From positions 59,836-123,835 of IMG/VR virus record IMGVR_UViG_3300028920_000040: a stretch of 64,000 bases of DNA; one strand, given 5' to 3'. A program made the position numbers and the translations under genes. Below are positions 695 to 36,233 of this stretch, one piece after another. This stretch comes from a virus. Within the stretch, counting starts at the first letter, position 1. Each line of letters opens with the position of its first letter. The notes under the pieces were generated by a model that was given only the letters and a program-made list of their open reading frames with translations, was not told where the DNA came from and did not search any database.

Positions 695-1183
695 ATGAGT
701 TTCAAGGATTATTTCAGAAAGAAAATAGACGAAGTTAAATTAGGAAATATGTTTCCTGTTAGAAAAATTCCTGTTGACTTTAAGCAGTGGCAATACCCAA
801 AGGAACACAAAACTCTTCCTTTTAATGACCATGAAATTTCTGTTATAAGGGAAATAATCAATCGAAGCGAAGATACTGTATATCCTGTTAATATAATGGT
901 TTCAAAAGATAAGACGACTATTTTACTTCAATGGGAAGAGTATATGGACCCAGCTTCAGGAAATTCTGGAGCTTTATATAAAATTGATGGTGGAGATAAA
1001 AAATATTATTGGGCATCATTTCAAAGACCTGAAGAAATGGGTTGGGGACAAGAAACCGATCCTGAAAGGTCTACTTCAAAAGACGATATAAAAAATTATA
1101 GCTTCTCTCCTGAAAAGGAAGACGATATTCTTAAACTTCGTAAGCTTATAGTCATTCATGCAAGGCCTGGAAGAAATATATAA
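695..1183 (+). CDS. hypothetical protein with capsid-targeting-like leader
   Basis: ORF with GGAG RBS; N-terminus MSFKDYFRKKIDE. Confidence 0.65.
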   Translation: MSFKDYFRKKIDEVKLGNMFPVRKIPVDFKQWQYPKEHKTLPFNDHEISVIREIINRSEDTVYPVNIMVSKDKTTILLQWEEYMDPASGNSGALYKIDGGDKKYYWASFQRPEEMGWGQETDPERSTSKDDIKNYSFSPEKEDDILKLRKLIVIHARPGRNI

Positions 1184-12632: not shown

Positions 12633-12665
12633 GATTAAATAAAATTAGAAATATAGGAGATAAGT

Positions 12666-18028: not shown

Positions 18029-18053
18029 TTATTTTTGTTATAAAGGATTTAAA

Positions 18054-18061
18054 TATAAATA
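18054..18061 (+). promoter_or_regulatory. T4-type late promoter TATAAATA heading the leader-tagged array
   Basis: exact TATAAATA 38 nt upstream of ATG 18099. Confidence 0.65.
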
Positions 18062-18098
18062 ATTATGATATATTCAATTATTTATCGAGGACTGCCAA

Positions 18099-19124
18099 AT
18101 GAATTTTAGAGATTATTATTTTACAGAATCTAAAAAATACGATCATATAGATTTTAAACCCCCGAATGGAGTCGCATCTGAAGCAAAAAAAGGATTAGAG
18201 TTTCGTCAAAAAGCGGGAGATAAAGGCGGATTATCTGTTAAACAAGCCAAAAAAGAGGGTGTTGGATCAGGAGTTCAAAGAGCAGTCAATCTTAAAAATA
18301 GAGATACAATGTCTCCAAAGACTGTTAAAAGAATGAAAGCATTTTTTGATAGACATGAAAAAAATGCAAAAATAGATTCGAAATATAAAGGAACTCCTTG
18401 GAAAGATAAAGGCTATGTCGCATGGCTACTTTGGGGAGGAGATGCAGGAAGATCGTGGGCAAATAAGATAGTTCGTCAAATGGAATCTGCTGATAAAAAA
18501 ATTAATGAAGGATTTGAAGATGTTGAAAAAGCATTAGAAAGAGGCAGAAATAGCGATCCGGCCGATCCCGATCTTTGGGAAAAAATTAAAAAAGAAGCAG
18601 ACAAAAAATATGGAAAAAAGTCTTCTGCATATAAAAGTGGAAAATATATCATCAAAGAAAATGATTTACCGGAGTTAGTTCTCCCAATAGGAATTTCGGG
18701 CTCGGGTAAAAGTACATGGATTAAGGAATTTAACAAAGATAACAAATACAGAGTTGTCGAGCCGGATGGAATTCGCAGAGAAGTAACTGGTGATGTATCT
18801 GATGCAAGTCAGGATAAACAAGTTTGGAAGATTGCAAAACAGAGGACTATAAATTCGTTAAGAGGCGACCAGAGTGTTATTTTGGATGCCACCAACATTG
18901 ATCCTGACCACCGAGCAGAATTTATAGAAGGTCTTCCTGAATGTGAATTAAAAGCAAAAATATTTAGACTTGATCCTGAAGAAGCAAAGAAAAGAATTAA
19001 ATCTGATATAGAATCTGGAAAAGATAGATCGAATGTACCTGAAGAAATTGTCGATAAGATGTTTGATAGATTTCAGGATAGTATTTCAAAATTAGAAGAT
19101 CAAGGATTTCAAATTATTAAATAA
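18099..19124 (+). CDS. leader-tagged multidomain protein with C-terminal AAA_33/PNK-like P-loop kinase
   Basis: leader MNFRDYYFTE; VAWLLWGGDAGRSWA domain; GISGSGKST Walker A and ILDATN. Confidence 0.75.
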   Translation: MNFRDYYFTESKKYDHIDFKPPNGVASEAKKGLEFRQKAGDKGGLSVKQAKKEGVGSGVQRAVNLKNRDTMSPKTVKRMKAFFDRHEKNAKIDSKYKGTPWKDKGYVAWLLWGGDAGRSWANKIVRQMESADKKINEGFEDVEKALERGRNSDPADPDLWEKIKKEADKKYGKKSSAYKSGKYIIKENDLPELVLPIGISGSGKSTWIKEFNKDNKYRVVEPDGIRREVTGDVSDASQDKQVWKIAKQRTINSLRGDQSVILDATNIDPDHRAEFIEGLPECELKAKIFRLDPEEAKKRIKSDIESGKDRSNVPEEIVDKMFDRFQDSISKLEDQGFQIIK

Positions 19125-19485
19125 GGAGAGTAAAATGAATTTTAAAGATTATTTAGATGAAGTTATAATGAGGCAGTTGAATGAATCTGGTGGCAAAACT
19201 AAAACAATAGTTACATATAAAGTAAAAGCTAAGAAAAAGATTGAAGACCCGAAATACAAAGAACCAGGTGCGTTTGTTAAAAAGGGATTAACTAAGGAAA
19301 TCAAAAAAAATGAAATAGATTTTATTAAGAAGAATGGTTATACTTTTGATATTCCAATGAGAGATTATTCCGCCAAGATTAAAGTGAGTCCAGAAGATTT
19401 GGATATTTTAGAAGTAACACAAACAATTACAACAAGTACATCTTCTAAAAAAATATAATCTAAATTAGAAGATCAAGGATTTCAA
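19089..19485 (+). repeat. 24-bp direct repeat flanking the 19135 gene
   Basis: aaattagaagatcaaggatttcaa at 19089-19112 and 19462-19485. Confidence 0.9.
19135..19458 (+). CDS. leader-tagged hypothetical protein
   Basis: MNFKDYLDE...LNE; AGGAG RBS. Confidence 0.7.
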   Translation: MNFKDYLDEVIMRQLNESGGKTKTIVTYKVKAKKKIEDPKYKEPGAFVKKGLTKEIKKNEIDFIKKNGYTFDIPMRDYSAKIKVSPEDLDILEVTQTITTSTSSKKI

Positions 19486-19505
19486 GTAATCGATTAGGAG
19501 AAAAA

Positions 19506-20903
19506 ATGAATTTTAGAGAACATTATTTTACTCTTATAGAAAGATTTGGTCTTGACGCAATGTACGTTCCTCCAAAGGATAAGCAGTATCAATTATATGA
19601 CTTCTATGCATTGTCTTTAATTAATCCAAATGCTTTTATGGATGAAGAAGCACAAGACTATTTTAAGCAGGCTAAAGAAACTATCGTTAATCATATCTAT
19701 AATGACTTTATGTATGCTGTATATTTTGCATTAGCGTCTGAACTATATCATACAAATGATGCGTCTGATTTTGAAAGTTTTAATTATAAAAATGAAAAAG
19801 ATAGAGCAGATTTAAAAAAAGAAGTTGGTCTTACCGATAAAGAAATTGATATTCTAGGAAAATTAGGGTCTAATATTCCAAGTAGAAAAGTAAGATATAA
19901 TAAGCTCAAAAAATTACTTTCTCCTGATGAGATGGCTAATATAGCAATAAAAGTTTTTGGAAAACATAAATGGTGGAATTCTGCATATGGCGGCGAAGCA
20001 TGGGCAAATATTGCTAAGGGATATAAAAGATTAATTAATGCAAAAACTATTGGAGATAAAATGGTTGCTATCGATCACGTTTACGATCTTCAACATAATT
20101 CAGATACTGTATTCGATAAGGTACAAGAATATTATAAAGGAGGCGACCTTTATTGGTTAAAGAATGCTCTTGATGATAAGGCACAAATCAAAGAACCTCA
20201 TGTTTATCTAGATAAAACATCTCCTCAATTATTCAGACCCCTTGCATATGCTTTTAAACAGCTATATGGAAAAACTCTTGAATCTTTTAAAACAGAAAAA
20301 GAAGAAAAAATTAAACAAATATTAGGAAAGTATAATGTTGATATTAATGATCCTCTCGTACAAGAATTTTTAAATGCTATTCAACCATTATTAGCCGTTT
20401 ATGAAAAATTAGATAATTATACTAAAACTGAAATTATTAGTATTATTAAAATTATAAAACAGAAAGATTATAATCAATTGAGTGACGATGATACATATGA
20501 TGATTTAAGAGACGCTATAGACACCGAAGAAACATATGATGTTATTGATTATAAAACCGAAGTTAATATTAGAAAAGCAATATCAAAGTTTATTAATAGA
20601 ATAGAAAATTATAAAACAAAACAATTTTCTAATTATCTTATAAAAGCTGGTTCTGAATTATTTGATTATATTATTAAAAATAGTTATAATGCAGATAAAA
20701 TAATGAAGACATATGATAAATTTCTTAAATTGGCCGAAAAAATTTCTACAGCATATAATATAGATTTAATACAAGATATATTTCAGAATATAGTAGAAAA
20801 CATTGAAAACGATAAGATTAAATTTAAAAACGAACAGCAAAAAGAAAAAGCAAAAAAGTTAGTAACAACATTATTAATGGATATCGAAGATTGGGGATTA
20901 TAA
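19506..20903 (+). CDS. tandem paralogue 1 (subtype A) of uncharacterised DHxYDLQHN family
   Basis: MNFREHYFTLIE-RFGLDAMYVPP; YGGEAWANIA; IDHVYDLQHN. Confidence 0.85.
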   Translation: MNFREHYFTLIERFGLDAMYVPPKDKQYQLYDFYALSLINPNAFMDEEAQDYFKQAKETIVNHIYNDFMYAVYFALASELYHTNDASDFESFNYKNEKDRADLKKEVGLTDKEIDILGKLGSNIPSRKVRYNKLKKLLSPDEMANIAIKVFGKHKWWNSAYGGEAWANIAKGYKRLINAKTIGDKMVAIDHVYDLQHNSDTVFDKVQEYYKGGDLYWLKNALDDKAQIKEPHVYLDKTSPQLFRPLAYAFKQLYGKTLESFKTEKEEKIKQILGKYNVDINDPLVQEFLNAIQPLLAVYEKLDNYTKTEIISIIKIIKQKDYNQLSDDDTYDDLRDAIDTEETYDVIDYKTEVNIRKAISKFINRIENYKTKQFSNYLIKAGSELFDYIIKNSYNADKIMKTYDKFLKLAEKISTAYNIDLIQDIFQNIVENIENDKIKFKNEQQKEKAKKLVTTLLMDIEDWGL

Positions 20904-22231
20904 TGAATTTTAGAGAACATTACTTTATAGAAAAGTTTGGTATGGAATCAATTTACACCATACCAAAAGACAAAGAACAACAGCTCTTTGACTTTTATGC
21001 TTTAACAATGTTCAATCCTAATGCATTAATGGATGAAGAAGCCCAGATGTTTTTTTCAGAAGCTAAAGAAAAAATTATTGACAGCCTTCAAAAATCTTTT
21101 ATAGATGCTTTATATACGGCCATTGCTGCTGAACTTACTCATACATTAATGCAGGCTTATCCTTTCTATTATGCATATCGTAATGATCATGACATTAAAT
21201 CAAAAAAATCTAAAGCAGAAGTTGAAGAAAAATTTACTCCTGAAGAAATAAAGGTACTTAAAAACTCTCATAATATTAGATCATATAATTATGATCAAAG
21301 AGCAAATTTCTTTAAAGAAAAAGGATACACTCCTGAAAAATTATATATTCTAGCTAAAAAAGTTTTTGATTTAAATTGGAGTTCTTCATTTGGTGGAAAG
21401 AAATGGAAAGAAATAGCGGTGGGATTAGAAAGATTAATTAATGCAAAATCTATGGGTGATAAAATGGTCGCTATAGATCATGCTTATGATCTTCAACACA
21501 ACAACGATACAGTCTTCAATAAAGTAAAAGAATTCGCTAAGCACGGAAGTTACGAGTGGCTCAAAAGAGCATTGGATTTAAAAGCACAAATTAAAGAGCC
21601 TCATGTTTATCTTGATAATATTTCTTCACAATTATATAGACCAATGGCTTACGCATTAAAACAAATATATGGAAAAACATTGGAAAGTTTTCTAAAACAA
21701 AAAGAAGAAGAAAAACAAAAATTTAAAGAAGAAATTTTAGAAAAGTGGCCAAACATTTTTAATGGAATTCGTCTTGAACACCAGGCAAAGAGATCATCAA
21801 TACAATATAATGTTCCAGTTAGTATATTTATACAATATGATTTTGATAAAAATAAATTAATAGATTCTTTTTATGTTCGACATAGTAACAAATCAATGTT
21901 AAATGATTATAGAAATAGTCCAGATACTATAGAAGTTAAAGTAATAAAACCAGAAGAAGCAAAACAGTTTATAATAAAAAAAGCAACAGACGCAAAAAAA
22001 TACAATTCAAGTGATTATAATAAATTTTTAAAAGGAGCAATTCAAGCAGCTAGGTCAAGAAATTCTTTTATGGCTCTTTATTATAATACATCATATAATA
22101 ATTTTGGATTTTCTAGTATAGGCGATTTTGGATATAATAATGAAAAAGATATAAAACCAGGATTTATAGCACTTGGTAATTATGTAATAATAGCCATTGT
22201 TAATCCAGACGGGAGTATAGATGAAATTTAG
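20903..22231 (+). CDS. tandem paralogue 2 (subtype B)
   Basis: MNFREHYFIE-KFGMESIY; IDHAYDLQHN; start at ATG 20903. Confidence 0.85.
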   Translation: MNFREHYFIEKFGMESIYTIPKDKEQQLFDFYALTMFNPNALMDEEAQMFFSEAKEKIIDSLQKSFIDALYTAIAAELTHTLMQAYPFYYAYRNDHDIKSKKSKAEVEEKFTPEEIKVLKNSHNIRSYNYDQRANFFKEKGYTPEKLYILAKKVFDLNWSSSFGGKKWKEIAVGLERLINAKSMGDKMVAIDHAYDLQHNNDTVFNKVKEFAKHGSYEWLKRALDLKAQIKEPHVYLDNISSQLYRPMAYALKQIYGKTLESFLKQKEEEKQKFKEEILEKWPNIFNGIRLEHQAKRSSIQYNVPVSIFIQYDFDKNKLIDSFYVRHSNKSMLNDYRNSPDTIEVKVIKPEEAKQFIIKKATDAKKYNSSDYNKFLKGAIQAARSRNSFMALYYNTSYNNFGFSSIGDFGYNNEKDIKPGFIALGNYVIIAIVNPDGSIDEI

Positions 22232-23537
22232 AGAACATTATTTTACAGAGAAGTTTGGTATGGAATCTATATATTCTCTGCCAAAAGACAAAGAACAACA
22301 GCTCTTTGACTTTTATGCTTTAACAATGTTCAATCCTAGTGCTTTGATGGACGAAGAAGCCGAAATGTTTTTTAATGAAGCAAAAGAAACAGTAATAAAT
22401 GGTCTTCAAAAATCTTTTATAGATGCTTTATATACAGCCATTGCTGCTGAACTTTTTCATACAAAAGATCAAGCAAAACCATTTCATGAATATGAACATT
22501 CTTTTTCTATAAAAAATAGAAAAAATGCAAAAAGTATTATCGAGTCTCAATTTACTCCAGAAGAAATAGCTTTAATAGATGATATTTCTAATGAATATGA
22601 CTATTCTAGAGGCGAATTGGATTATGATCAAAGAGCAAAAATTTTTAAAGAAGGTGGATATTCTCCTGAAAAATTATATAAATTTGCTAAAAAAGTTTTT
22701 AATCTTGATTGGTATGGTGGATATGGCGGCAAGAAATGGAAACAAATTGCAGATGGATTAGAAAGATTAATAGATTCAAAATCTCTTGGTGATAAAATGG
22801 TCGCTATAGATCATGCTTATGATCTTCAACATAACAACGATACAGTCTTTAATAAAGTAAAAAAATTCGCTAAGCACGGAAGTTATAGTTGGCTTAAGAG
22901 AGCTTTAGATTTAAAAGCCAAAATTAAAGAGCCTCATGTTTATCTTAATAATATTTCTTCACAATTATATAGGCCTCTTGCTTATGCATTTAAAAAACTT
23001 TATAATAAAACTCTTGAAGACTTTACTAGACAACAAGCAGAAAATAGAGAAACAAATAAAAAAAGAGTTTTAGAATTGTGGGCAAAATCAGATGATTTAG
23101 ATTATATTAAAAGACGTATGATTTATTCTTCACTGAGGGATAACTCTAACGTATCATCTTTTGCAAGATATGATAGTGAAAACGATGAGATAATAAATAC
23201 TTTTTATATATCACACGATAATAATGGAATACAAAGATATAGAAACGATCCAGAATATTTTGAATTGGAAACGATAACACCAGAAAAAGCAAAAGAAGAA
23301 GCAGTAAAAATAGCAAATGATGCAAAAAAATTGAAACCACAAAAATATAAAAATGAATTAAAAGATGTACAATATTATGCAAATGTGTTTAATAAAAATG
23401 GTGCAATATACTATGATATAGAAGATGATACTTTTGAAAATACTTTTTATTCTAATGCTTTTATTAATAAAAACCCTGGAGATATATTTAGTTCGACGTT
23501 TGTATTGATGAAAATAGTTACTCCAAAAAAAGATTAA
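22221..23537 (+). CDS. tandem paralogue 3 (subtype B)
   Basis: MKFREHYFTE-KFGMESIY; IDHAYDLQHN. Confidence 0.85.
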   Translation: MKFREHYFTEKFGMESIYSLPKDKEQQLFDFYALTMFNPSALMDEEAEMFFNEAKETVINGLQKSFIDALYTAIAAELFHTKDQAKPFHEYEHSFSIKNRKNAKSIIESQFTPEEIALIDDISNEYDYSRGELDYDQRAKIFKEGGYSPEKLYKFAKKVFNLDWYGGYGGKKWKQIADGLERLIDSKSLGDKMVAIDHAYDLQHNNDTVFNKVKKFAKHGSYSWLKRALDLKAKIKEPHVYLNNISSQLYRPLAYAFKKLYNKTLEDFTRQQAENRETNKKRVLELWAKSDDLDYIKRRMIYSSLRDNSNVSSFARYDSENDEIINTFYISHDNNGIQRYRNDPEYFELETITPEKAKEEAVKIANDAKKLKPQKYKNELKDVQYYANVFNKNGAIYYDIEDDTFENTFYSNAFINKNPGDIFSSTFVLMKIVTPKKD

Positions 23538-23559
23538 ATATAAAATATGGAGAATAATT

Positions 23560-23715
23560 GTGAAAAAAATTAAATCTTATTTAGACGAAAAACTTTTTGG
23601 TGGAAAAAAGTCAGATGTTGAAGTTATTGCTAAGGCAATATCTAAAATAATTAAAGATAAAGCTAAGGATGCGGGAATTGATCCTAAGGAAATACTTCAT
23701 TATATCAAGGTATAA
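23560..23715 (+). CDS. 51-aa leader-like small protein (not in ORF track)
   Basis: GTG start after GGAG; MKKIKSYLDE-KLFGG... Confidence 0.55.
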   Translation: MKKIKSYLDEKLFGGKKSDVEVIAKAISKIIKDKAKDAGIDPKEILHYIKV

Positions 23716-23719
23716 TTAT

Positions 23720-25045
23720 ATGAATTTTAGAGAATATTACTTTGTAGAAAAATTTGGTATGGAATCAATTTATTCTTTACCGGAAGACAAAGAACAACAG
23801 CTCTTTGACTTTTATGCATTGTCATTAATTAATCCTAATGCATTAATGGATGAAGAAGCTCAAATGTTTTTTAATGAAGCAAAAGAAACAGTAATAAATG
23901 GTCTTCAAAAATCTTTTATAGGTGCTTTATATACAGCCGTTGCCGCAGAACTTTTCCATACACAAGCACAAGCAATTCCTTTCTATAAGGCTAAATGGGG
24001 AAGTTCTAAACAAAGAATAAACGCAATAAATAAAATTGAAAAAATTTTTACTCCTGAAGAAATAAAATTAGTAGAAGACATGCGTAATTTTGGTTTAAAG
24101 AGTTATGATAAAAGAGCAAACTTTTTAAAAGAAAAAGGATATACTCCTGAAAAATTATATAAACTAGGACAAAAAATATTTGGTTTATCTTGGTCTTCAG
24201 GATATGGCGGTAAGAAATGGAAGCAGATAGCCGATGCATTAGAAAGACTGATTAATGCAACTTCTCCCGGTGAGAAAATGGTTGCTATAGATCATGCTTA
24301 TGATCTTCAACATAACAACGATACAGTCTTTAATAAAGTAAAAGAGTTTGCAAAACACGGTAGTTATAGTTGGCTTAAGAGAGCTTTAGATTTAAAAGCC
24401 AAAATTAAAGAACCTCATATTTATCTTCAAAATATATCTGCTCAGCTTTATAGACCTCTTGCTTACGCATTAAAACAAATATATGGAAAAACATTAGAAG
24501 ATTTTATAAGACAAAAAGAAGAACAAAAACAAAAAATTATAGATGATATTTTAAAGAATTGGCCAGAAAATGAAAGTCAAAAAGGCGTAGATCAATCTGC
24601 AAAATTTCGTTCGGTTCAAGATAATGCTCCGGTTAGTATATTTATAAAATATGATTTTGATGAACACAAAATAATCGATGATTCTTTTGTTTCACATCTT
24701 CGCGACAATCTTTTAAAATCTTATAAAAATAGCGATGATTATATCGAAATCAAAATAATAAATCCTAAAGATGCAAAGAAAGAAATACTTGAAAAAGCAA
24801 AATTAGCAAGAGAAAAATCTGATGATTATAATGAGCAGATAGAAGTGACACAACAAGACGCAGAACAAACAAAAATGGAATATATAATTTATTATGATCC
24901 ATTGGAAAAATATGAAAATTTTGGTCATACTGGAAGAAAAAATTTAAGATCGGAGTATCAAAGAAGTAAACCAGGCGATATGATATATGATAGATATGTA
25001 TTAATGGCAATTATTAAATCGGATGGAAGTGTAGATGAACTTTAA
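23720..25045 (+). CDS. tandem paralogue 4 (subtype B)
   Basis: MNFREYYFVE-KFGMESIY; start reassigned to ATG 23720. Confidence 0.85.
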   Translation: MNFREYYFVEKFGMESIYSLPEDKEQQLFDFYALSLINPNALMDEEAQMFFNEAKETVINGLQKSFIGALYTAVAAELFHTQAQAIPFYKAKWGSSKQRINAINKIEKIFTPEEIKLVEDMRNFGLKSYDKRANFLKEKGYTPEKLYKLGQKIFGLSWSSGYGGKKWKQIADALERLINATSPGEKMVAIDHAYDLQHNNDTVFNKVKEFAKHGSYSWLKRALDLKAKIKEPHIYLQNISAQLYRPLAYALKQIYGKTLEDFIRQKEEQKQKIIDDILKNWPENESQKGVDQSAKFRSVQDNAPVSIFIKYDFDEHKIIDDSFVSHLRDNLLKSYKNSDDYIEIKIINPKDAKKEILEKAKLAREKSDDYNEQIEVTQQDAEQTKMEYIIYYDPLEKYENFGHTGRKNLRSEYQRSKPGDMIYDRYVLMAIIKSDGSVDEL

Positions 25046-26186
25046 AGAATACTATAATTTAAACGAAAGATTTGGTCTTGATGCGATGTACGTTCCTCCA
25101 AAGGATAAGCAGTATCAATTATATGACTTCTATGCATTATCATTAATTAATCCAAATGCTTTTATGGATGAAGAAGCTAAGGATTATTTTAAACAAGCCA
25201 AAGAATCAATCATAGATGCAACATATAAAGACTTTGTTAATGCTTTATTCTTTTCTATTGCATCAGAGATTTTTCATATGGAAGACTCTGCATACTTTTC
25301 TCGATTGAATCGAAAAGATATAAAAGATTTTTATAATCTTACTGATAAAGAAATGAAATTTGTAGAAAAAATGTTTGAAGACAACAGTGCAAAATCTAGA
25401 GAAGAAAGAAATAAAATAGTAAGACATGAATTTTCCCCACAAGAACTTGCTAACTTTGCAACGAAAATATTTGCTGGTAATCCAAAAGCATCTCACGAAG
25501 TTGGAGAAAATGATATGTGGGAAGAAGGGTATGGTGGAAAAGCATGGTGGAATATTGCTAAAGGATATAATAGACTGCTTAATGCAAAATCCATACCAGA
25601 TAAAATGGTTGCTATAGATCATGTATATGATTTACAACACAACTCTAATACTGTATTTGATAAGGTACGAGATTATTATAAGAGCGGGTATTCTTGGCTA
25701 AAAGATTCATTAGACGATAAAGCACAAATTAAAGACCCACACGTTTATATTGATAAAACATCTCCTCAATTGTTTAGACCTTTAGCTTACGCTTTTAAAC
25801 AGTTATATGGAAAGACTATTGAATCTTTTAAAAAAGAACAATCAGAAAAATATGAAAAAGATATTATAGAGTTTATGGATAAAAACGGAATTGATCATTC
25901 GCTTTCGTTTTTAGTTGATGGTTTTTTTGACGCACTAGAATTTTTAAATAAATATAAAACAGAAATGGGACTTTCAAAAGAATGGATTGAAAATCGAAAA
26001 TTTAGGTTTAAATATAGTTTAATAGATCAAAATCAAAACAATATAGAAGGTGGTATAAACTTTATAATAGATTTAATTGAACAACATGTTAATATGGCTA
26101 ATATACCATCGTCAGAATCAAAGATAATTATTGATAAATTAGAAGATATTATTAATAAGTTATCAAATTTAAATTATTTTAAATAA
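25035..26186 (+). CDS. tandem paralogue 5 (subtype A)
   Basis: MNFKEYYNLNE-RFGLDAMY; IDHVYDLQHN. Confidence 0.85.
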   Translation: MNFKEYYNLNERFGLDAMYVPPKDKQYQLYDFYALSLINPNAFMDEEAKDYFKQAKESIIDATYKDFVNALFFSIASEIFHMEDSAYFSRLNRKDIKDFYNLTDKEMKFVEKMFEDNSAKSREERNKIVRHEFSPQELANFATKIFAGNPKASHEVGENDMWEEGYGGKAWWNIAKGYNRLLNAKSIPDKMVAIDHVYDLQHNSNTVFDKVRDYYKSGYSWLKDSLDDKAQIKDPHVYIDKTSPQLFRPLAYAFKQLYGKTIESFKKEQSEKYEKDIIEFMDKNGIDHSLSFLVDGFFDALEFLNKYKTEMGLSKEWIENRKFRFKYSLIDQNQNNIEGGINFIIDLIEQHVNMANIPSSESKIIIDKLEDIINKLSNLNYFK

Positions 26187-26207
26187 TAAAATTAAAGGTA
26201 TAATTAT

Positions 26208-27371: not shown

Positions 27372-27385
27372 ATTGGAGATGTAAT

Positions 27386-28918: not shown

Positions 28919-29340
28919 TGTCATTTAAAGATTATTTAAAGAAAAAATTAAATGAAGGCAAATATGATAATACTAATTTAGCCGATCCAAATAGTTATTA
29001 TAAAGTAATAGACTCCTTTGATGTATTTGTAAAAACCGGGTCAAGTCATGCTAATACTTATTATGGAAGTGGAGAAATTCTTAAGTCTGTTTGGAAGAAA
29101 ATGTCAGCAGAACCCGGATATGAAATTCATAATCTCATGGGAGGTACATATATAATTCCAACAGATACGGACGACTTGGTTGCATGGAAAGTTTTAATAA
29201 AAGAACCAGAGTTTGCTCCTTTTGTAAAAAAGTATTATCCAGACCAACAGGTATTTCCTCTTGATAAATTAGAACAAATATCTAAAGAAGAAGCATTATC
29301 AGGAGTTGATTATATTGATAAAATGGAGATTACAAAATGA
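28918..29340 (+). CDS. leader-tagged hypothetical protein
   Basis: MSFKDYLKKKLNE. Confidence 0.7.
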   Translation: MSFKDYLKKKLNEGKYDNTNLADPNSYYKVIDSFDVFVKTGSSHANTYYGSGEILKSVWKKMSAEPGYEIHNLMGGTYIIPTDTDDLVAWKVLIKEPEFAPFVKKYYPDQQVFPLDKLEQISKEEALSGVDYIDKMEITK

Positions 29341-29915
29341 AATTTGCTATGTTCTACGAACAGGAAATTGACGACTGGCGTGAGAGAAAAGTGTGGCACA
29401 TCACACCAACAGGCCAAAGAAATCATGTTAAGATAAAAAGTCTTTCTCCAGAAGAACAAGAAAAATATAAGCCGGCTTTACTCGATCTTCATGTTAAAAA
29501 GAAAAAGAAAAGTGCTGAAAATAAAAATCCTGAGAAAAAGGAAAAGGAGAAAAAAGCTTCAGCCGGAGAAATTTTAGACCCGGACCTTCTAGATTTTTAT
29601 TATATTATAAATAGTCCTGAAGATATCGATAAGATAGAAAAAGGAAAATTAATTAAGGCTACTGATCTTTCAAGTAAAGCAATAGAATGGTCTGGCGACG
29701 ATAAATACATAGTTAGTGTATCAAATGTTCCTATTAAGGCTGTTGTGCTTTATAAGAATGATGAAGGAGAAATGGTACATTTTCCTGAGAATATGAAGAC
29801 GCACGACAAATATGAATTTATTAAGTTTCAAGAAAACGACGAGTTTCTTTTAAACTTATTTCCATTTTTAGAACAAATAACAATTAAACTTTCAGATAAG
29901 GAAGAAAAAAAATGA
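29337..29915 (+). CDS. leader-tagged hypothetical protein
   Basis: MKFAMFYEQE. Confidence 0.65.
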   Translation: MKFAMFYEQEIDDWRERKVWHITPTGQRNHVKIKSLSPEEQEKYKPALLDLHVKKKKKSAENKNPEKKEKEKKASAGEILDPDLLDFYYIINSPEDIDKIEKGKLIKATDLSSKAIEWSGDDKYIVSVSNVPIKAVVLYKNDEGEMVHFPENMKTHDKYEFIKFQENDEFLLNLFPFLEQITIKLSDKEEKK

Positions 29916-30121
29916 GCTTAAAAAATTTTCTTATTCAAAAATTAAATGAAGATGATGGCATACCAAGACCACCAACAGAAAGTGAAAAAGGTTCTATGCA
30001 AGCATTATTTAATACTTGGCGTAATATAGGAAGAGGTCTAGCAGATGATCACATGCCTCTTGATATTGTAGAAACAGTTGTAAGATATTTAGAAGATTGT
30101 GGTTATATTAAAGGAGAATAA
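29912..30121 (+). CDS. leader-tagged small protein
   Basis: MSLKNFLIQKLNE. Confidence 0.65.
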   Translation: MSLKNFLIQKLNEDDGIPRPPTESEKGSMQALFNTWRNIGRGLADDHMPLDIVETVVRYLEDCGYIKGE

Positions 30122-30122
30122 A

Positions 30123-30398
30123 ATGAATAGCAAATCTTTTCAGCAGTATTTAAACGAAGACATTTATGCAAATGCACTTAGAAAAAAATTAACCCCAGAA
30201 GAAATTAAAAGGATTGACAGTTTTGTTGATAGTGAAGGAGAAGAGTGGGACGATCTTGAAGGCGATCTTTATGATAAACTCATGGATTTCTTTGCTGATG
30301 AAATGCCATATGGTGTTATGAAAGCAAGAACTGGTGATCCTATGGAATGGATGTACGATAAATTCATATCAATGGGATTTGGAACAAGAGTAAAATAA
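30123..30398 (+). CDS. leader-tagged small acidic protein
   Basis: MNSKSFQQYLNE; EMPYGVMKARTGDP; AGGAG RBS before ATG 30123. Confidence 0.7.
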   Translation: MNSKSFQQYLNEDIYANALRKKLTPEEIKRIDSFVDSEGEEWDDLEGDLYDKLMDFFADEMPYGVMKARTGDPMEWMYDKFISMGFGTRVK

Positions 30399-30399
30399 T

Positions 30400-30963
30400 A
30401 TGACTTTCAAAGATTTTTATCTTGACGAAAAGATGGCGAGGTGGAACCTACCTAAAAAGAAATGGGTATCTTTACCATTGGAAGAACTTAATGATGATAT
30501 GAAACAACTTCTTTGGAGAATGTATTCGGATTCATATAGTCGTCAAGGACTTGCTTTGAATACAAAAAATATTAATGAATTGGTTGATAAATATAAAGTT
30601 TCCTGGTTCATTGATGTTGATACAGATACTACACCAGAAGCATTTATAATTTATAGAGAATCACCAGTAGGCAATAAAATTGCTCTTTTAGGAACAGACG
30701 ATAACCGTCTTTCAAAAAGACTTCTTGTAAGAAAGTTAATTTCTCTTTTAAGAAAGCCAGGTTGGTATATAGAAGCCTCCCATAAGATTGCAGACATTAT
30801 TGAGAATAAGGGTGGCAAATGGATTGACGACGAAGAAAAGGTTAAAAAGATTCTTGCTCCTGCGGAAATAGATGAATGGCTTGGTGATGGAAGATATAAA
30901 AGAACACTTAAAGGAACAAATATAGAAGTTACAAAAAGACTCTATGGTAATCCAAGAGGATAA
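30400..30963 (+). CDS. leader-tagged hypothetical protein
   Basis: MTFKDFYLDE. Confidence 0.7.
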   Translation: MTFKDFYLDEKMARWNLPKKKWVSLPLEELNDDMKQLLWRMYSDSYSRQGLALNTKNINELVDKYKVSWFIDVDTDTTPEAFIIYRESPVGNKIALLGTDDNRLSKRLLVRKLISLLRKPGWYIEASHKIADIIENKGGKWIDDEEKVKKILAPAEIDEWLGDGRYKRTLKGTNIEVTKRLYGNPRG

Positions 30964-30972
30964 GGAGTAGAT

Positions 30973-31239
30973 ATGAAATATCAAGATTATTTGACAAAAC
31001 TATTAAAAGAACAATCAAAAGAAGAAACTAAAATTAATGAGCTTGAAGAAGAAATTTCTGATTTGATTTGGAGATATGATCCTGAAGGAGAGGATAATTT
31101 TTTTGATGACGACTTAGATAAAATCAAAAAGATTAAAAATCCAAAATCAAAAATTAAAGCACTTGAAAGATTAATTTCAGATATCAAATGGCGATATGAT
31201 CCTGAAGGGGAAGACGAAAATAATTTTTTTGATGATTAA
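30973..31239 (+). CDS. leader-tagged protein with internal duplication
   Basis: MKYQDYLTKLLKE; ISD-x-x-WRYDPEGED...NFFDD twice. Confidence 0.7.
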   Translation: MKYQDYLTKLLKEQSKEETKINELEEEISDLIWRYDPEGEDNFFDDDLDKIKKIKNPKSKIKALERLISDIKWRYDPEGEDENNFFDD

Positions 31240-31259
31240 ATATAGTAAAGAAAAATATA

Positions 31260-31388
31260 ATGTCATTTAAAAAATATTATAATACAGATATAAATTATAA
31301 AATAAATTTAGAAAATGCTCAACGATTATATGGAAATTTAGTTCCTTGGGAGTTAGATAAAAAAGTTGCTAATAAATTAAGAGGATGA
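31260..31388 (+). CDS. 42-aa leader-like ORF (not in ORF track)
   Basis: MSFKKYYNTD... Confidence 0.45.
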   Translation: MSFKKYYNTDINYKINLENAQRLYGNLVPWELDKKVANKLRG

Positions 31389-31404
31389 TGAAAGGAGAAT
31401 TGTT

Positions 31405-31614
31405 ATGAATTTTGTTAAAAAGTTTTTTAAGAAATTGGCTAAAAAAATTCTTATTAAAAAGATTGAAGACGAGAAATTTCAAGAAGAAATTACTAAGAAG
31501 ATTAGAGAAAAGATTGAAATTCCTAATGTAGATGAGAAAGAAGAAGAAAAATTTGTCAATCAGATTTATGATGCATTACAGGAATTGCTTGTAGGTATTG
31601 TAGAGGATATTTAA
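31405..31614 (+). CDS. hypothetical protein
   Basis: AGGAG RBS; 69 aa. Confidence 0.6.
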   Translation: MNFVKKFFKKLAKKILIKKIEDEKFQEEITKKIREKIEIPNVDEKEEEKFVNQIYDALQELLVGIVEDI

Positions 31615-31616
31615 TA

Positions 31617-32018
31617 ATGTCATTTAAAGCTTATTTAAAAGAAAGAGTATTACTTGAAGGTATTAAACCTATAAAGAATGCTGTTATGAAAAGAACTCAT
31701 AAGATTGTTAATGCTTTAAATGATTCTGATGAAGAACAGAAACTTAGATGGAATGTCGGTAAGATAGATTTTGGTGGAGTTCCTACAGAATTTCTTTTTA
31801 CTACTGCAGATATAAATGGTAAAGACTATACTTTCTTTTCATATAATGCAGGCGGTGGATCAAGCATTGTTGCATGGAATTATATAACTCCAAGTTCTTC
31901 TCCCTCTTTTGATGGAACTGAAGGACAGTTACCAGCAACAGATAAATATCAAGACGATCTTTCGGATGATGATTTAGAAGAAATTAAAAAAGTGTTTGAA
32001 AAAATAAAGAGCAAATAA
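31617..32018 (+). CDS. leader-tagged hypothetical protein
   Basis: MSFKAYLKERVLLE. Confidence 0.7.
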   Translation: MSFKAYLKERVLLEGIKPIKNAVMKRTHKIVNALNDSDEEQKLRWNVGKIDFGGVPTEFLFTTADINGKDYTFFSYNAGGGSSIVAWNYITPSSSPSFDGTEGQLPATDKYQDDLSDDDLEEIKKVFEKIKSK

Positions 32019-32069
32019 AATGAAGTTTGAGGAATTTTACATGAAAGAAAATAAAAAGGAGAATCAAAA

Positions 32070-32441
32070 ATGAGCTTTAAAAAGTATTTAAATGAAAAAA
32101 ATCATTTAAAAGAATCCAGATTTTATAAGAGTCAAAAAGTTATATATAAAGACGAGCCATATATTATAACTAAAACTATTGCGCCGCCCGAGGGACATGG
32201 TTGGTATCATAGTGAACTATATGTCATAATTCAACCAGAAGCTGGCGGTGAAGAAATTAAAGTAGATACTGATGAGCTAACTCCTATTGAATCAGATGAT
32301 AAAGATTTATTATCTAAAAAGGAATTAGTCAAAAAAATATCTTCATTGGCTGCCAAATCAAGATATGAGTTAGAAAAAAAATCATTAGGTATTGATATAG
32401 ACATGATTAATTTTAATGAACTTATGAGTATGATGAAATAA
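32070..32441 (+). CDS. leader-tagged hypothetical protein
   Basis: MSFKKYLNE...LKE. Confidence 0.7.
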   Translation: MSFKKYLNEKNHLKESRFYKSQKVIYKDEPYIITKTIAPPEGHGWYHSELYVIIQPEAGGEEIKVDTDELTPIESDDKDLLSKKELVKKISSLAAKSRYELEKKSLGIDIDMINFNELMSMMK

Positions 32442-32445
32442 TATT

Positions 32446-32598
32446 ATGAACTTTAAAGACCATTATTTAAAAGAAGCTGGTGAGAAAAATGATATATTAT
32501 ATCATACCACCCTTGCTGCGACCGTCCCAAAGATATTAGAAGACGGAATAATTTATCCAACACCAGAAACATTTAAGGCATTAGCACAAAGACATTAA
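32446..32598 (+). pseudogene. 50-aa leader-tagged ORF, possibly a truncated ADP-ribosyltransferase-like fragment
   Basis: MNFKDHYLKE then LYHTT...VPKILEDGIIYP; TAA overlaps the next ATG. Confidence 0.4.
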
Positions 32599-34037
32599 TG
32601 AGATTCTCAACATTTTATACAACACACTTCTTACTTGAAGCTGGTACCTTCTCCGATTGGAAAGGCTACGTGGAGAGAACTCCCGAGCTTAAAAATGCGG
32701 TAGAAGTAATGCAGAAGATAGATGCGAAAGGAAAAGACATTCGCAGCTATGTTGTGGGTGGTGCTGTTCGTGATATCGTTATGGGTAGAGATTTTAATGA
32801 TGTTGATATCGCAACCAATCTTCCTATATCAGAAATCGAAAAGATGTTCAAGACTCATGATATTGGAAAGAATAAAGACTTTGGTATTGTTGTTGTTGAT
32901 TACAAAGGCGATGTATTTGAAATTGCAAACTTCCGTCAGGATGGTGCATACCTTGATGGTCGCAGACCAGAAGATGTAAAGATCGTTATGAGTTTCGAAG
33001 ACGATGCCGGCCGCAGAGACTTTACTGTCAATGCAATGGGTATCGACAAAGACGGAAATGTTATAGACTTCTTTGACGGAAAGAAAGATATCAAAGACAA
33101 AGTAATTAAAACTGTTGGTGATCCTAATAAAAGATTCGCAGAAGATTATTTAAGAATGTTAAGAGCCATTCGTTTTGGTTCTAAACTTGGTTTCCGTATT
33201 GACGATGATACCATGAAGGCTATCAAATCCAAATCGCATAAGATAAAAGATATTGCTGTCGAAAGAGTTATGAAAGAAGTCATTAAGATGGCAGAACAGG
33301 AAGGATCAAAGTTTGCAGATGCAATCATAACATTGAAAGATGCAGGACTTCTTCAATATATCTTTCCTGAAATTATAGAAATGGATTCTTTCGAACATTC
33401 AGTAGAACATCATCCAGAAGGAAATGTTCTTCAACATACATTGGCCGCACTTAAATCAAGCAATAGTAAAGACCCATTGGTTAATCTTTCTATTCTGTTT
33501 CATGATGTGGGCAAACTAAAGACACATGAAGTAGATGAAAAAGGTCTGCATAGATATTTTGGTCATGCTGAAGAGGCTAGAGAAATCATTGAGAATCTTG
33601 CAAAGAGACTTAAGCTCGACAATGAAACCAAGAATGCAATGCTATATTCAGCAATCAATCATATGAAGTTCCACGACTTCCTGAAGATGAGCAACTCCAA
33701 GATAATGAGTTTGATGGGAGATGATAACTGGGATTTACTTTATCAAGTTGCATTGGCCGATGCTAAGGCTCGTGGAGAGGCATTTGATGAGGAAGAATGG
33801 AAAAAGATTACTGATAAGATAGATGATCTTACCGCCAAATATAAATCCAAAAAGGCTATAGATAATATAAGAAAGATAGTTAATGGCAGAATGGTCATGG
33901 ACTTATTGAATATGAAAGGTGGTCCTGAGCTTGGTAGAATTATAAATACTACTATTGAATGGATATTGGACAACAATATAGACCTTAATGATATAGACAA
34001 AATAAAGGAATTTATAATATCGCAAAGGGGCGAATGA
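32598..34037 (+). CDS. cca: CCA-adding tRNA nucleotidyltransferase with HD domain, carrying a leader
   Basis: VGGAVRD, DVDIAT, RRDFTVNAM, EDYLRMLRAIRF, HHPEG and FHDVGK; leader MRFSTFYTTHFLLE. Confidence 0.9.
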   Translation: MRFSTFYTTHFLLEAGTFSDWKGYVERTPELKNAVEVMQKIDAKGKDIRSYVVGGAVRDIVMGRDFNDVDIATNLPISEIEKMFKTHDIGKNKDFGIVVVDYKGDVFEIANFRQDGAYLDGRRPEDVKIVMSFEDDAGRRDFTVNAMGIDKDGNVIDFFDGKKDIKDKVIKTVGDPNKRFAEDYLRMLRAIRFGSKLGFRIDDDTMKAIKSKSHKIKDIAVERVMKEVIKMAEQEGSKFADAIITLKDAGLLQYIFPEIIEMDSFEHSVEHHPEGNVLQHTLAALKSSNSKDPLVNLSILFHDVGKLKTHEVDEKGLHRYFGHAEEAREIIENLAKRLKLDNETKNAMLYSAINHMKFHDFLKMSNSKIMSLMGDDNWDLLYQVALADAKARGEAFDEEEWKKITDKIDDLTAKYKSKKAIDNIRKIVNGRMVMDLLNMKGGPELGRIINTTIEWILDNNIDLNDIDKIKEFIISQRGE

Positions 34038-34294
34038 TGGATAAATTTAAAAAATATCTTGACAAGAAGATCAACGAGGCTTCAAAATATTCTAAGAAAT
34101 CAGATGCATATAAAACAGTTGGTAACATTACAGAAACAATTGAAAATATGGTTAGATGTGTTGAATATGGCGATGGTACTACTGATATGGACGGACAAGT
34201 CCAGTGTGCTAAAGAAATATACGAAAAATTTATAGAACCTCTTGAACAAGAAATAAAACTATTACGTAGTCCATCATCTCCCTCACATGGATGA
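34034..34294 (+). CDS. leader-tagged small protein
   Basis: MDKFKKYLDKKINE. Confidence 0.7.
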   Translation: MMDKFKKYLDKKINEASKYSKKSDAYKTVGNITETIENMVRCVEYGDGTTDMDGQVQCAKEIYEKFIEPLEQEIKLLRSPSSPSHG

Positions 34295-34307
34295 TAAGGA
34301 GTAAACA

Positions 34308-34628
34308 ATGAACAAATTTAAAGACTATCTTGATAATAAACTTAATGAAGATTACGCACAAGACAAATTTAATCTTGCTCTACAAAAAGGCGTAAGTGCA
34401 TTTTGGCAGGCAATGTGGGAAGTTTTTGGTAAGGAAGTCAGTACCGATCCTGTAACAGAAAAAGAATTAAGAGATGCAATGGCCCGTACAATTGCAAGAA
34501 TTCAAAATCCTTTAGACGATGATCCAGAAAAGGATGATGAAGACGATACTAATAAAATTATTAATACTATTTATAAGTCCGATGACGACGATGATGACGA
34601 AGTTATTAGAATAGTCCCTGATAAATAA
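34308..34628 (+). CDS. leader-tagged acidic protein (paralogue of 34652)
   Basis: MNKFKDYLDNKLNE; AFWQAM...LRDAM. Confidence 0.7.
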   Translation: MNKFKDYLDNKLNEDYAQDKFNLALQKGVSAFWQAMWEVFGKEVSTDPVTEKELRDAMARTIARIQNPLDDDPEKDDEDDTNKIINTIYKSDDDDDDEVIRIVPDK

Positions 34629-34651
34629 GAATAAATAATTAGGAGCGAACA

Positions 34652-34978
34652 ATGAACAAATTTAAAGACTATCTTGATAAGAAGATTAATGAAGAATCTT
34701 TACAAGACATAATTGAAAATACTACTGAAAAAGCAGAAATGGCTTTTTGGGCTTCTGTTGAAGAATCTCTTGCCATGGCGAAGGTTCCAGCTAGTATAAT
34801 TCCAACAAAAAAACTTAGAATGGCAATGAAGGATGCTGTTAATTCTTCTGTCTACAGCGACGGTTCCGAAGAATCCCGTGCATTCGAAAAAGAATTTCGT
34901 CCTGAGCCACGCAGACCAAGAGAACCATCACCAGAAGAAAAAGCTTTTGAAAAGGAATTTGGTCCGGAGGAAGTATGA
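34652..34978 (+). CDS. leader-tagged acidic protein (paralogue of 34308)
   Basis: MNKFKDYLDKKINE; AFWASV...LRMAM; AFEKEF twice. Confidence 0.7.
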   Translation: MNKFKDYLDKKINEESLQDIIENTTEKAEMAFWASVEESLAMAKVPASIIPTKKLRMAMKDAVNSSVYSDGSEESRAFEKEFRPEPRRPREPSPEEKAFEKEFGPEEV

Positions 34979-35412
34979 GCATTATAGATCATCTAGATAA
35001 ACATATCAAAGGCCAATTTAATGAAGAGGCAACTCTTACTGAGTTGTTTAAAATTAAAAAGTTTGTCGAATTTATAAAAGATAAAGGCGTTCAAGAATTG
35101 GACGACGAACATCTTGAAGAATTGATTGCAGACTTTCATATTAATTCTGATCTTGTTTATCAAAATATAGAAGACTTCAAAGAAATGTTACGCAATGCCG
35201 GTGTTAGTTATGACGACGATGAAGGATCAACTGGGCCCATAAGAGCATTTGTAATGTTCCTTCAGGACAAGGGAGTAACAGAAGTCAACAATGAAAACTG
35301 GAATGCTTTACTAGATGAATTTGGTATGCTTGACTCTGATGTATTAGATGCCAACTGGGAATTCCTTATGTCTTTATTAGATGAAGTTGGTATAACAAAC
35401 AATTTAAAATAA
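34975..35412 (+). CDS. acidic protein with internal duplication and divergent leader
   Basis: FVEFIKDKGV / FVMFLQDKGV repeat. Confidence 0.65.
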   Translation: MSIIDHLDKHIKGQFNEEATLTELFKIKKFVEFIKDKGVQELDDEHLEELIADFHINSDLVYQNIEDFKEMLRNAGVSYDDDEGSTGPIRAFVMFLQDKGVTEVNNENWNALLDEFGMLDSDVLDANWEFLMSLLDEVGITNNLK

Positions 35413-35430
35413 ATTGAACAAGGAGGCAAT

Positions 35431-35556
35431 ATGTCTTTTTTTGACTATCTATCACAAAATCTTGGAATTGAAATTCATAATGATCAACCAGAAAATATTG
35501 ATACACAAGAAACTGTAACTGAAGAAGAAATCTCTGAGGAAACTAAGGAGGATTAA
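35431..35556 (+). CDS. 41-aa acidic leader-like peptide (not in ORF track)
   Basis: AGGAGG RBS; MSFFDYLSQNLGIE... Confidence 0.6.
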   Translation: MSFFDYLSQNLGIEIHNDQPENIDTQETVTEEEISEETKED

Positions 35557-35879
35557 TGTCTATTTTAGAACATATTCAAAAATCTATTGATAAGACCATT
35601 GTAGAAAAGAAGTCTTCTGAAGAAGAAGAAAAAGGCGTATCTTGGTACATTAACAAATTTAAAGATAAAATGTCAGGATCAACATTTGCTACATCAATTG
35701 GTTGGGTAGATGGTATCGGTAAGGCGATTACGGATAAAGAAAAAGCAAAGGTTCTCAAAGGTATTATGAAGTATATAGATATACCTAAGAGTTCGGATGC
35801 TAAAAAGTACGAAAAATACAAAGAAGAAGTACAAAGAAAAATAAAAGAATATCCTTGGTGTAAATCAGTATTGAAATAA
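35556..35879 (+). CDS. hypothetical protein with divergent leader
   Basis: MSILEHIQ...IVE; AGGAGG RBS. Confidence 0.65.
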   Translation: MSILEHIQKSIDKTIVEKKSSEEEEKGVSWYINKFKDKMSGSTFATSIGWVDGIGKAITDKEKAKVLKGIMKYIDIPKSSDAKKYEKYKEEVQRKIKEYPWCKSVLK

Positions 35880-35891
35880 TAGGAGGAACAG

Positions 35892-36215
35892 ATGACATTT
35901 TTAGAAGGCATTCAAGAAATTCTTGATAAGAGTCAAAAAATAATAATTGAAAAGAAATTATCGACTAAAGAGAAGAAGGCTCTTCCTAAGAAATCATTTG
36001 CTCTTCCAAAGGAACATGCAAAGGTTGCTGATAATAAAAATCACTTTCCAATTAATGACGAATCACACGCACGAAACGCACTTGCTCGTGCCAATCAGTA
36101 TAAGAAATCTCCACGATGGTTTAAAGGAAATTTAGATCAGCTCAAGAAGATTGTTGCTGATTCTGTAAAAAAGAAATTTTCTGATATTGATGTGACAGAA
36201 AAATCTTACAAATAA
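35892..36215 (+). CDS. basic small protein, DUF6582-like motif, with leader
   Basis: MTFLEGIQE...IIE; LPKKSFALP...FPINDESHARNALARANQ. Confidence 0.55.
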   Translation: MTFLEGIQEILDKSQKIIIEKKLSTKEKKALPKKSFALPKEHAKVADNKNHFPINDESHARNALARANQYKKSPRWFKGNLDQLKKIVADSVKKKFSDIDVTEKSYK

Positions 36216-36233
36216 TTTAATAAGGAGTTTATA

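Follow-up and report, generated by a model that had tools for sequence, protein, structure and literature searches.

Background

Why would some thirty genes of a single virus, most of them otherwise unrelated, begin with nearly the same dozen amino acids? The question is raised by a 64,000-nt stretch of DNA (the window), bases 59836-123835 of the virus record IMGVR_UViG_3300028920_000040, in which a first-pass annotation, made from the letters alone, had pointed to an array of about 30 genes at 18099-36215 with one common leader that resembled the capsid-targeting sequence (CTS) of phage T4. Here we follow this leader through the window and through the whole 123,835-bp linear record, giving positions in the window unless they are marked as genome coordinates, which refer to the whole record. 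The answer that we favour is that the shared N-terminus is probably a leader for capsid targeting and cleavage of the T4 type, borne by about 30 cargo proteins, which would be roughly ten times more genes than bear one in T4.

In T4, the CTS is known from three internal proteins and from Alt; the former are injected and inhibit restriction enzymes of the host (PMC12373910). The CTS is also described in PMC3012670 and PMC5694885. According to PMC9026906, it is 10-19 residues long and is removed by the protease gp21, which cuts after L/I-x-E, carries an LIE site near its own N-terminus, is incorporated into the prohead core and does its cutting during head maturation. For the internal protein IPIII, the same source states that residues 4 and 7 (Tyr and Phe) play a part in targeting and 8 and 10 in processing, and that an Asp at position 10 stops the cutting and leaves targeting intact. 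If the leader of the window works in this manner, the tagged genes would be transcribed late from a promoter at 18054, and a leader of about 10-14 residues, an aromatic pair three apart and then hydrophobic-x-Glu, would dock each protein onto the prohead scaffolding core. The gp21-type prohead protease would then cut behind the leader Glu, and the freed cargo would remain in the head beside the DNA and enter the next host together with it. The capsid-targeting concept is already known. In the literature we found no description of CTS-like tagged arrays in jumbo, huge or metagenomic phages, though older T4-like genome papers could hold one.

A shared N-terminus on unrelated proteins

All seven N-termini quoted in the first-pass annotation are present where it had placed them. 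Its pattern, M-x-F-[KR]-[DEK]-[YHF]-[YFL] (the strict motif), is found, over the 123,835-bp record, at 15 of the 3066 + strand ATGs and at none of the 1758 ATGs on the - strand. All 15 matches are gene starts, ranging from window 695 to 32446; at 20903 and 23720 the match is to the first well-placed ATG a little way into a longer ORF.

We also applied a looser rule with two parts, the first being the aromatic motif within the first 8 residues and the second [LIVMFY]-x-E (x-E below) ending at residue 8-15, with gene starts chosen automatically. For these counts, the leader zone was taken as genome 56.5-60.9 kb together with window 18099-36215, which gives 35 genes. The first part is found in 26 of them, always as an aromatic pair spaced three residues apart at positions 3/6 or 4/7, the second likewise in 26, and both in 21; genes 23720 and 34037 also match once the start is set to the leader ATG. 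The corresponding numbers are 1, 12 and 0 for 49 structural genes, 0 in every case for the 20 genes of the glycan island, and 1, 11 and 1 for 75 genes of the early region, the one with both parts being the gene at window 60804. Among 678 internal-Met decoys, four have the first part and two have both. Taken together, the aromatic part marks 26/35 leader-zone genes vs 2/144 other genes, and x-E at residues 8-15 marks 26/35 vs 23/144. The strict and loose counts, set against the decoys, rule out a chance origin of the motif, and the enrichment in this locus that had been claimed over the glycan island and the early region is confirmed.

The estimate of about 30 genes was right, and the cargo is about 30 proteins in some 26 families. 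The accompanying statement that the rest of each protein is unrelated has to be amended in one place: the six genes at 19506-27371 are paralogues, 44-61% identical to one another, so that "unrelated" holds for about 26 families. After trimming of the leaders (16 residues), the other 25 ORFs are without significant similarity even in a relaxed BLASTP search. Simple paralogy was considered as a source of the shared start and is ruled out, since only these six genes are alike and the other bodies are dissimilar. The proposed bounds of the array were correct in that 18099-36215 is tagged, and too narrow in that the tagged zone reaches upstream of the window start (genome 56520-59941) and that one tagged gene lies inside the head module, at genome 13134. 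Nor is there one leader throughout: most genes of the array share it, and the last four (34975-36215) carry a different, aliphatic variant.

Selection on the peptide

The upstream regions of the tagged genes have nothing in common except a ribosome-binding site. Within the genes, the conserved leader residues are encoded by varied synonymous codons, and where residues are replaced the replacements are conservative (K/R, D/E, Y/H/F). Across leader codons 2-12 of 22 non-paralogous genes, codon usage mirrors that of the genome (TTT 79% vs 82%, TAT 91% vs 87%). Selection therefore acts on the peptide and not on the DNA; codons that vary under a peptide that is kept argue against a repeat, a recombination site or a signal at the RNA level. 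A DNA-level repeat or gene conversion, which we considered separately, is ruled out by the synonymous variation and the genome-like codon usage.

These observations bear directly on the idea that the shared start is a functionless relic, left by common ancestry or by gene conversion among neighbours. There are six true paralogues in the array, and tandem arrays favour recombination, so the idea has a natural setting here. We nevertheless find it scarcely credible, given that the cargo includes unrelated folds (a CCA-adding enzyme, a P-loop kinase, and ligase-like and cytidylyltransferase-like proteins), that identity at the DNA level is no greater than the codons require, and that the leader is kept in hundreds of phages on homologues with a mutual identity of 50% or less.

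A putative late promoter at the head of the array

The late promoter that was said to head the array is present as a T4-type late-promoter-like motif, TATAAATA, at window 18054..18061 on the + strand, 37 nt upstream of the first array gene (ATG 18099). The motif has 19 copies on the + strand, and its reverse complement occurs once. Ten of the 19 lie within 3,491 intergenic bases, where 1000 shuffles give 1.0 +/- 0.98 copies and never more than 6, an approximately 10-fold enrichment in intergenic DNA. Nine of these ten are followed by structural genes, and the tenth is the copy at 18054 that heads the array. No terminator-like site was found on the + strand of 17300-37200, and near-consensus sigma-70-like promoters (a match at no fewer than 11 of 12 positions) are absent from the leader and glycan zone, compared with 3 for the structural module and 5 beyond 36.9 kb. 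Because the late-promoter motif stands at the head and neither terminator-like sites nor sigma-70-like promoters follow, the array looks like a single long late transcription unit that ends at the start of the early region. The intergenic copies also have an extended context in common, TATAAATA-(A/C/G)-T-..-ATGA-like (for example at genome 12664, 17153 and 24555 and at window 18054), which might specify the late promoter of this phage more closely.

A unit of this kind invites the thought that the shared start is an expression signal, a feature of translation initiation or of the mRNA of late genes, with the peptide as its by-product; the first codons are A/T-rich, and all of the genes are in one apparently late operon. 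This is very improbable in our judgement. The synonymous codons vary at genome-wide frequencies whereas residues are either kept or exchanged for similar ones, the aromatic motif is found in just one of the 49 structural genes, including those behind the nine other intergenic late-promoter motifs, and x-E is kept in 9 of 13 internal copies of a protein domain (see below) that are distant from any start codon.

Comparison with T4

The leaders of the window resemble the CTS of IPI, IPII, IPIII and Alt in being N-terminal, in their length of 10-19 residues, in having an aromatic pair three residues apart, and in their terminal hydrophobic-x-Glu; as in T4, the cargo bodies are unrelated, the same genome encodes a gp21-type protease, and the loci are variable. 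One example is MNKFKDYLD..INE, to be compared with T4 MKTYQEFIAE and MKTFKEF..., a likeness of sequence that is known from the genes alone. In MNKFKDYLDNKLNE and MDKFKKYLDKKINE the aromatics stand at 4 and 7, as in T4, and in MNFREHYFTE and MSFKDYL... they stand at positions 3 and 6. The comparison drawn in the first-pass annotation also holds when it is run on the T4 record itself (NC_000866), in which ipII and ipIII begin with MKTYQEFIAE/A (here and below, a slash stands behind the final Glu), ipI with MKTFKEF...TE/A and Alt with MELITELFDE/D. Of 98 ORFs in 51 kb of T4, the loose pattern derived from the window matches ipII and ipIII alone; ipI fails by one position. Judged by sequence, four marks of a CTS are present, namely an N-terminal leader, an aromatic pair like that used for targeting in T4, an L/I-x-E-type end and a gp21-family protease in the genome. 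Two AlphaFold models give their leaders (residues 1-17 and 1-25) a low confidence, with a pLDDT <50, and show them as unstructured.

There are also differences from T4. The internal proteins of T4 are small and basic, whereas the cargo here includes enzymes of 37-57 kDa and many of its proteins are acidic. About 30 tagged genes stand against the three internal proteins of T4 and the "at least 10" that PMC12373910 gives across T-even phages, and they form one late operon-like array, compared with the two distinct loci that the same source describes for the T4 ip genes.

The gp21-like protease that the first-pass annotation had said should be located is encoded in the same genome. The gene at genome 16456-17124 matches Peptidase_S77 (PF03420) with 79.2 bits against a cut-off of 27 at genome 16507-16953, and His77 and Ser130 are invariant in an alignment of three sequences. 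The major capsid protein offers a view of what this enzyme may cut: its LFLAE/ASQG aligns with SFLTE/AEIGG of T4 gp23, and the aligned LTE/A position is one that we take to be the gp23 maturation site. Because the LAE/A of the capsid protein falls on LTE/A of gp23, the alignment suggests that the protease has kept a T4-type specificity. The head protease itself begins with a leader-like MKLIKEYINPGELE (MKLIKEYI...), as the only one of the 49 structural genes with the aromatic part. A complex prediction that paired the head protease and residues 1-45 of the CCA-adding enzyme scored 0.02 against a mark of 0.32 and is counted neither way.

A protease site need not mean packaging. The leader might be recognised by an enzyme that modifies or processes it and act as a propeptide, holding its bearers inactive until that has happened, with no part in head assembly; a single maturase that serves many substrates through a common leader is known logic, and x-E is compatible with a protease site. 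The sole matching protease found is, however, the prohead protease, and cleavage by it would imply packaging, since the T4 enzyme sits in the prohead core (PMC9026906). Pfam and PHROG scans of those array genes that were tested gave no modifying-enzyme family, with no search aimed at one. Cleavage apart from packaging therefore seems to us quite improbable, though not as improbable as an expression signal.

Conservation in relatives

The CCA-adding enzyme of the array has 119 homologues, 48-66% identical and many of them on contigs of 170-430 kb, of which 102 have x-E at residues 7-18 and 50 the strict aromatic motif, with starts such as MRFKQFYLIE, MKTFKQYLVE and MRLTQYLIE. Two cultured phages, D69 and phiM12, have CCA enzymes that begin at once with the catalytic domain and lack both leader and linker. 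In a library clustered at 50% identity, the family of the six paralogues is found with 1157 representatives (E<=0.001); among the best 148 of these 1157, with this genome excluded, x-E is present at residues 7-18 in 118 and the strict aromatic motif in 37. For the ligase-like protein encoded just upstream of the window, x-E is found at residues 7-22 in 86 of 120 matches, query included. By this measure the leader is old and widespread.

The surroundings of the homologues were examined in 80 IMG/VR loci of about 20 kb each around CCA homologues. The aromatic-leader pattern is found at 197 of 2094 gene starts and, together with x-E, at 162, compared with 158 and 49 of 7507 internal-Met decoys. 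Sixteen of the 80 loci hold 4-9 tagged genes, often consecutive (e.g. L012, L015, L020, L084); one of these, L012, shares synteny with this genome. BLASTP groups the 162 tagged proteins of the relatives into 92 clusters, 61 of them singletons, and most of the cargo of the window is without a counterpart among the 92. With so many clusters and singletons and so little overlap, the tag is conserved and the cargo turns over. The first-pass annotation had called the set exchangeable, and the relatives bear this out with similar arrays whose cargo is mostly different. It had also treated the array as a feature of this phage, where it does exist; the array is rather a trait shared by a wide uncultured clade than one unique to this member. 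In another locus, L013, seven or more neighbouring genes share a different leader, ..(L/M)LEDIFxPMSxPEQ.., and the aromatic tag is absent there.

From here a wider claim may be framed, about which we are somewhat more doubtful than confident: that a short label (M-x-F-K/R-x-Y/F-L/Y ... hydrophobic-x-E) loads dozens of freely exchangeable proteins per phage into the head across a large, wholly uncultured T4-like clade of jumbo and huge phages. Were it to hold, the injected proteome of such phages could be predicted from sequence alone, and it would include a tRNA/RNA repair kit (ligase-like, kinase-like, CCA-adding/HD and a second nucleotidyltransferase) that travels with the DNA and would neutralise tRNA-cutting host defences ahead of any phage gene expression.

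The domain shared by the six paralogues is also found away from N-termini. In 99 of 134 N-terminal copies, x-E stands 9 or 10 residues before a conserved P-x-D-K, and in 9 of 13 copies buried in proteins of 835-2354 aa it stands 7-11 residues before it, which would fit a cleavage site at the domain border of a polyprotein. One such protein, of 1928 aa, is encoded at L006:8843-14629 in a complete 192-kb T4-like phage (record G003), where it combines the paralogue-family domain with beta-solenoid repeats and is placed between a portal-sized ORF and the S77 protease, a scaffold-sized ORF and the capsid gene.

Two other systems are worth comparing. The polyvalent proteins of phages and conjugative elements, which Iyer et al. 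are said to have described in 2017, reportedly carry many effector domains that are delivered with the DNA. The paralogue-family domain recalls them in that it also occurs inside giant proteins of other phages; unlike polyvalent proteins, the effectors here are separate genes with a tag of their own, not domains of one polypeptide. The giant phages phiKZ, 201phi2-1 and SPN3US likewise have many head-internal proteins that a gp21-related protease cleaves behind Glu and that pass into the host on ejection, and giant-phage heads hold dozens of protein species (PMC9026906, PMC5694885). Their propeptides are mostly >100 residues long, and the passages of PMC5694885 that deal with them report no common short leader, in contrast to the short tag described here, which can be read from the sequence and is common to nearly all of the cargo.

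Common N-terminal tags of unrelated phage proteins may serve other purposes than head loading. The tag might dock or sort its bearers to another part of the virion, to a phage-made compartment or complex, or to a chaperone, or it might mark them for timed degradation; their destination is something that we infer, and the cleavage-type x-E is absent from 9 of the 35 tagged genes. We still regard such a role as unlikely, since the tag matches the experimentally defined head-targeting leaders of T4 in its length, its aromatic spacing and its terminal hydrophobic-x-E, since the head protease itself begins in a leader-like manner as the sole such gene of the 49 structural genes, since the tagged gene at genome 13134 lies within the head module, and since a homologous domain occurs in a polyprotein encoded between portal and protease in another phage. 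It is the least improbable of the alternatives that we weighed.

Limits and significance

Several points weigh against a capsid-targeting and cleavage leader, and we collect them here. Nine of the 35 leader-zone genes are without [LIVMFY]-x-E at residues 8-15, and nine are without the aromatic part. Two leaders, those of 27386 and 31260, have Asp in place of the expected Glu. The x-E motif is short, and it is present at the same residues in the 23 of 144 untagged genes counted above; in the paralogue family, it could belong to the first helix of the domain itself. The promoter is read from its motif. In a weak test for a genome-specific leader dialect, with paralogues included, leaders are more similar within a locus than between loci (19.97 vs 16.44, with 0/2000 permutations), and the CCA-specific form of the test came out in 3/5 only. 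RNA-repair enzymes are early cytoplasmic proteins in T4, and those of the array might simply be late cytoplasmic enzymes. Finally, the phage is uncultured and the whole case is built on sequence.

Every prediction that the first-pass annotation made at the level of sequence came out positive, and its interpretation is partly supported: loading into heads, docking on the core, removal of the leader by cleavage, retention in the head and co-injection are steps that we infer.

If the reading as a capsid-targeting leader is true, a single phage would inject about 30 proteins, with many more among its relatives. The tag would then show, from sequence alone, which proteins of an uncultured phage make the "first strike", and these would be rich in candidate anti-defence factors; it would also supply new leaders for T4-style protein-packaging technology. 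Whole RNA-repair enzymes would be carried by the virion. If the tag acts otherwise, there is still a signal common to hundreds of phage lineages to be explained.

Genes of the tagged zone

The + strand carries all long ORFs of this phage, including every gene described here, and the G+C content is about 30%. The tagged zone opens upstream of the window with a 463-aa protein (genome 56520-57911) that starts with MSFGFLEYLKDYQNE and has no Pfam or PHROG family; past its leader it is extremely acidic, with long Glu/Asp runs interrupted by Lys runs, and resembles the acidic tail of T4 gp67.

Next, just upstream of the window, comes a ligase-like protein of 424 aa (genome 58212-59486). It has no Pfam match, and phmmer against the sequences of the PDB returned nothing meaningful (best E-value 0.2). 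Its E-K-T-D-G-Q motif, which contains the K-x-D-G adenylation motif by which RNA ligases are recognised, is invariant across 19 sequences. The model (pLDDT 83) has polynucleotide ligases as all of its top 40 structural matches, among them T4 Rnl1 and fungal Trl1, at middling Z scores of 8.7-6.1 (rmsd 3.9-5.4, 164-216 residues aligned) and a best Foldseek E-value of 4.9e-04. From motif and fold, the product is probably an RNA ligase. Among its homologues MNxLTKYLVE-type starts are common, and in many a cytidylyltransferase-like (HxGH) domain precedes the ligase-like one in a fusion protein of about 625 aa that has a single leader (P0278-P0390). The present genome encodes the two domains apart, each in a tagged gene of its own (genome 58212 and window 103).

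The ORF that spans the start of the window has a start similar to the aliphatic variant of 34975..36215. It is followed by the 196-aa cytidylyltransferase-like nucleotidyltransferase at 103..693, with the leader MKFQKFYE/S (Pfam CTP_transf_like 2e-07, phrog_395 2.2e-15), and by a 162-aa protein at 695..1183 with MSFKDYFRKKIDE/V, which has the strict motif and no Pfam or PHROG match. Twenty leader-free genes at 1158-17879, made up of the glycan-synthesis island, a 1532-aa protein and small ORFs, then divide the tagged zone in two.

The main array opens at 18099..19124 with a 341-aa polynucleotide-kinase-like P-loop kinase (leader MNFRDYYFTE/S; Pfam AAA_33 3.9e-21), whose best-named PHROG is phrog_505 "polynucleotide kinase" (3.9e-17). 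A basic protein of 98 aa with the leader MNFKDYLDE/V and no family match follows at 19135..19458. The six tandem paralogues occupy 19506..27371 (starts 19506, 20903, 22221, 23720, 25035 and 26208), and in each the leader is followed by an all-helical domain of about 270 aa, which is conserved, and by a tail that varies. A PDB profile search with this family gave 0 matches and Foldseek none at E<=0.001; an HD phosphohydrolase fold was considered and dropped, the best ESM Atlas TM of 0.30 being regarded as noise. At 27386..28918 lies a 510-aa protein with a weak Pfam GP88 match (1.7e-06) and the leader MNFREHYYKD, in which residue 10 is Asp.

Thirteen genes of 42-192 aa fill 28918..32598 (starts 28918, 29337, 29912, 30123, 30400, 30973, 31260, 31405, 31617, 32070, 32446 and neighbours); most bear a leader, their bodies are unrelated, and those that were tested have no Pfam or PHROG family. 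They are followed at 32598..34037 by a 479-aa protein with the leader MRFSTFYTTHFLLE/A and a linker of about 35 aa, which by its PolyA_pol head domain (PF01743, 9e-31) and RNA-binding domain (PolyA_pol_RNAbd, PF12627, 7e-13) is a class II CCA-adding tRNA nucleotidyltransferase (phrog_2244, 1.4e-78). Its HD domain is below the cut-off here (20.7 vs 22 bits) and is recorded for many homologues. Because ligase-like, kinase, CCA-adding and cytidylyltransferase-like enzymes occur together, the tagged set suggests a ready-made tRNA/RNA repair kit.

Three small acidic proteins come next, at 34037..34978, with the leader M-x-K-F-K-(D/K)-Y-L-D-x-K-(I/L)-N-E, whose spacing is the same as in the MKTFKEF of T4 ipI, and the array closes at 34975..36215 with the four genes of the aliphatic variant (MSIIDHL.., MSFFDYL.., MSILEHIQ.., MTFLEGIQE), of which gene 35892 matches phrog_16160 (1e-09). 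The remaining cargo proteins are small and many are acidic; those that were tested match no family. Far from the array, at 60804..61064 in the early region, the lone leader-like gene of 86 aa starts with MNIKEFITNNLVE/N, has both parts of the loose rule and no PHROG match; it may be a tagged gene outside the array, as the ip genes of T4 sit away from the head genes.

Genome context

The record has a CheckV completeness of 48%. A 226,364-bp contig in the protein collection encodes proteins identical to those of two genes of this phage, which is therefore probably a jumbo phage. The 60 kb that precede the window hold a T4-like structural module in T4 gene order, with the head genes running from a portal-sized ORF through a small ORF, the Peptidase_S77 protease and a 265-aa acidic ORF to the 439-aa major capsid protein, an order that holds ORFs whose size and acidic, helical character would suit a scaffolding core like that of T4 (gp22, gp67, gp68). 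The capsid protein has its best matches in gp23 of T4-like cyanophages at just 33% identity, and since these are the nearest cultured phages, the phage is by sequence only distantly T4-like. No close cultured relative was found in the phage collection, the array had 0 megablast matches among 50,697 phage records, and tblastn with one of the paralogues gave as its sole match one uncultured 595-kb phage.

Directly before the portal-sized gene, at genome 12703-13529, are two small ORFs with the leader-like starts MKDVKDILYE/T and MIKFSQYYLVE/G, adjoined by a copy of TATAAATA at genome 12664; they are candidate core or internal head proteins. At the other end of the leader-free block, a transfer-messenger RNA (tmRNA) gene with the tag peptide AEEYSYAMAA lies directly before the array (17682-18028, + strand), placed between the neighbours of the 1532-aa adhesin-like gene and the putative late promoter of the array. 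In the close relative L012, a 1694-aa protein and homologous-looking starts likewise stand directly before its own tagged array.

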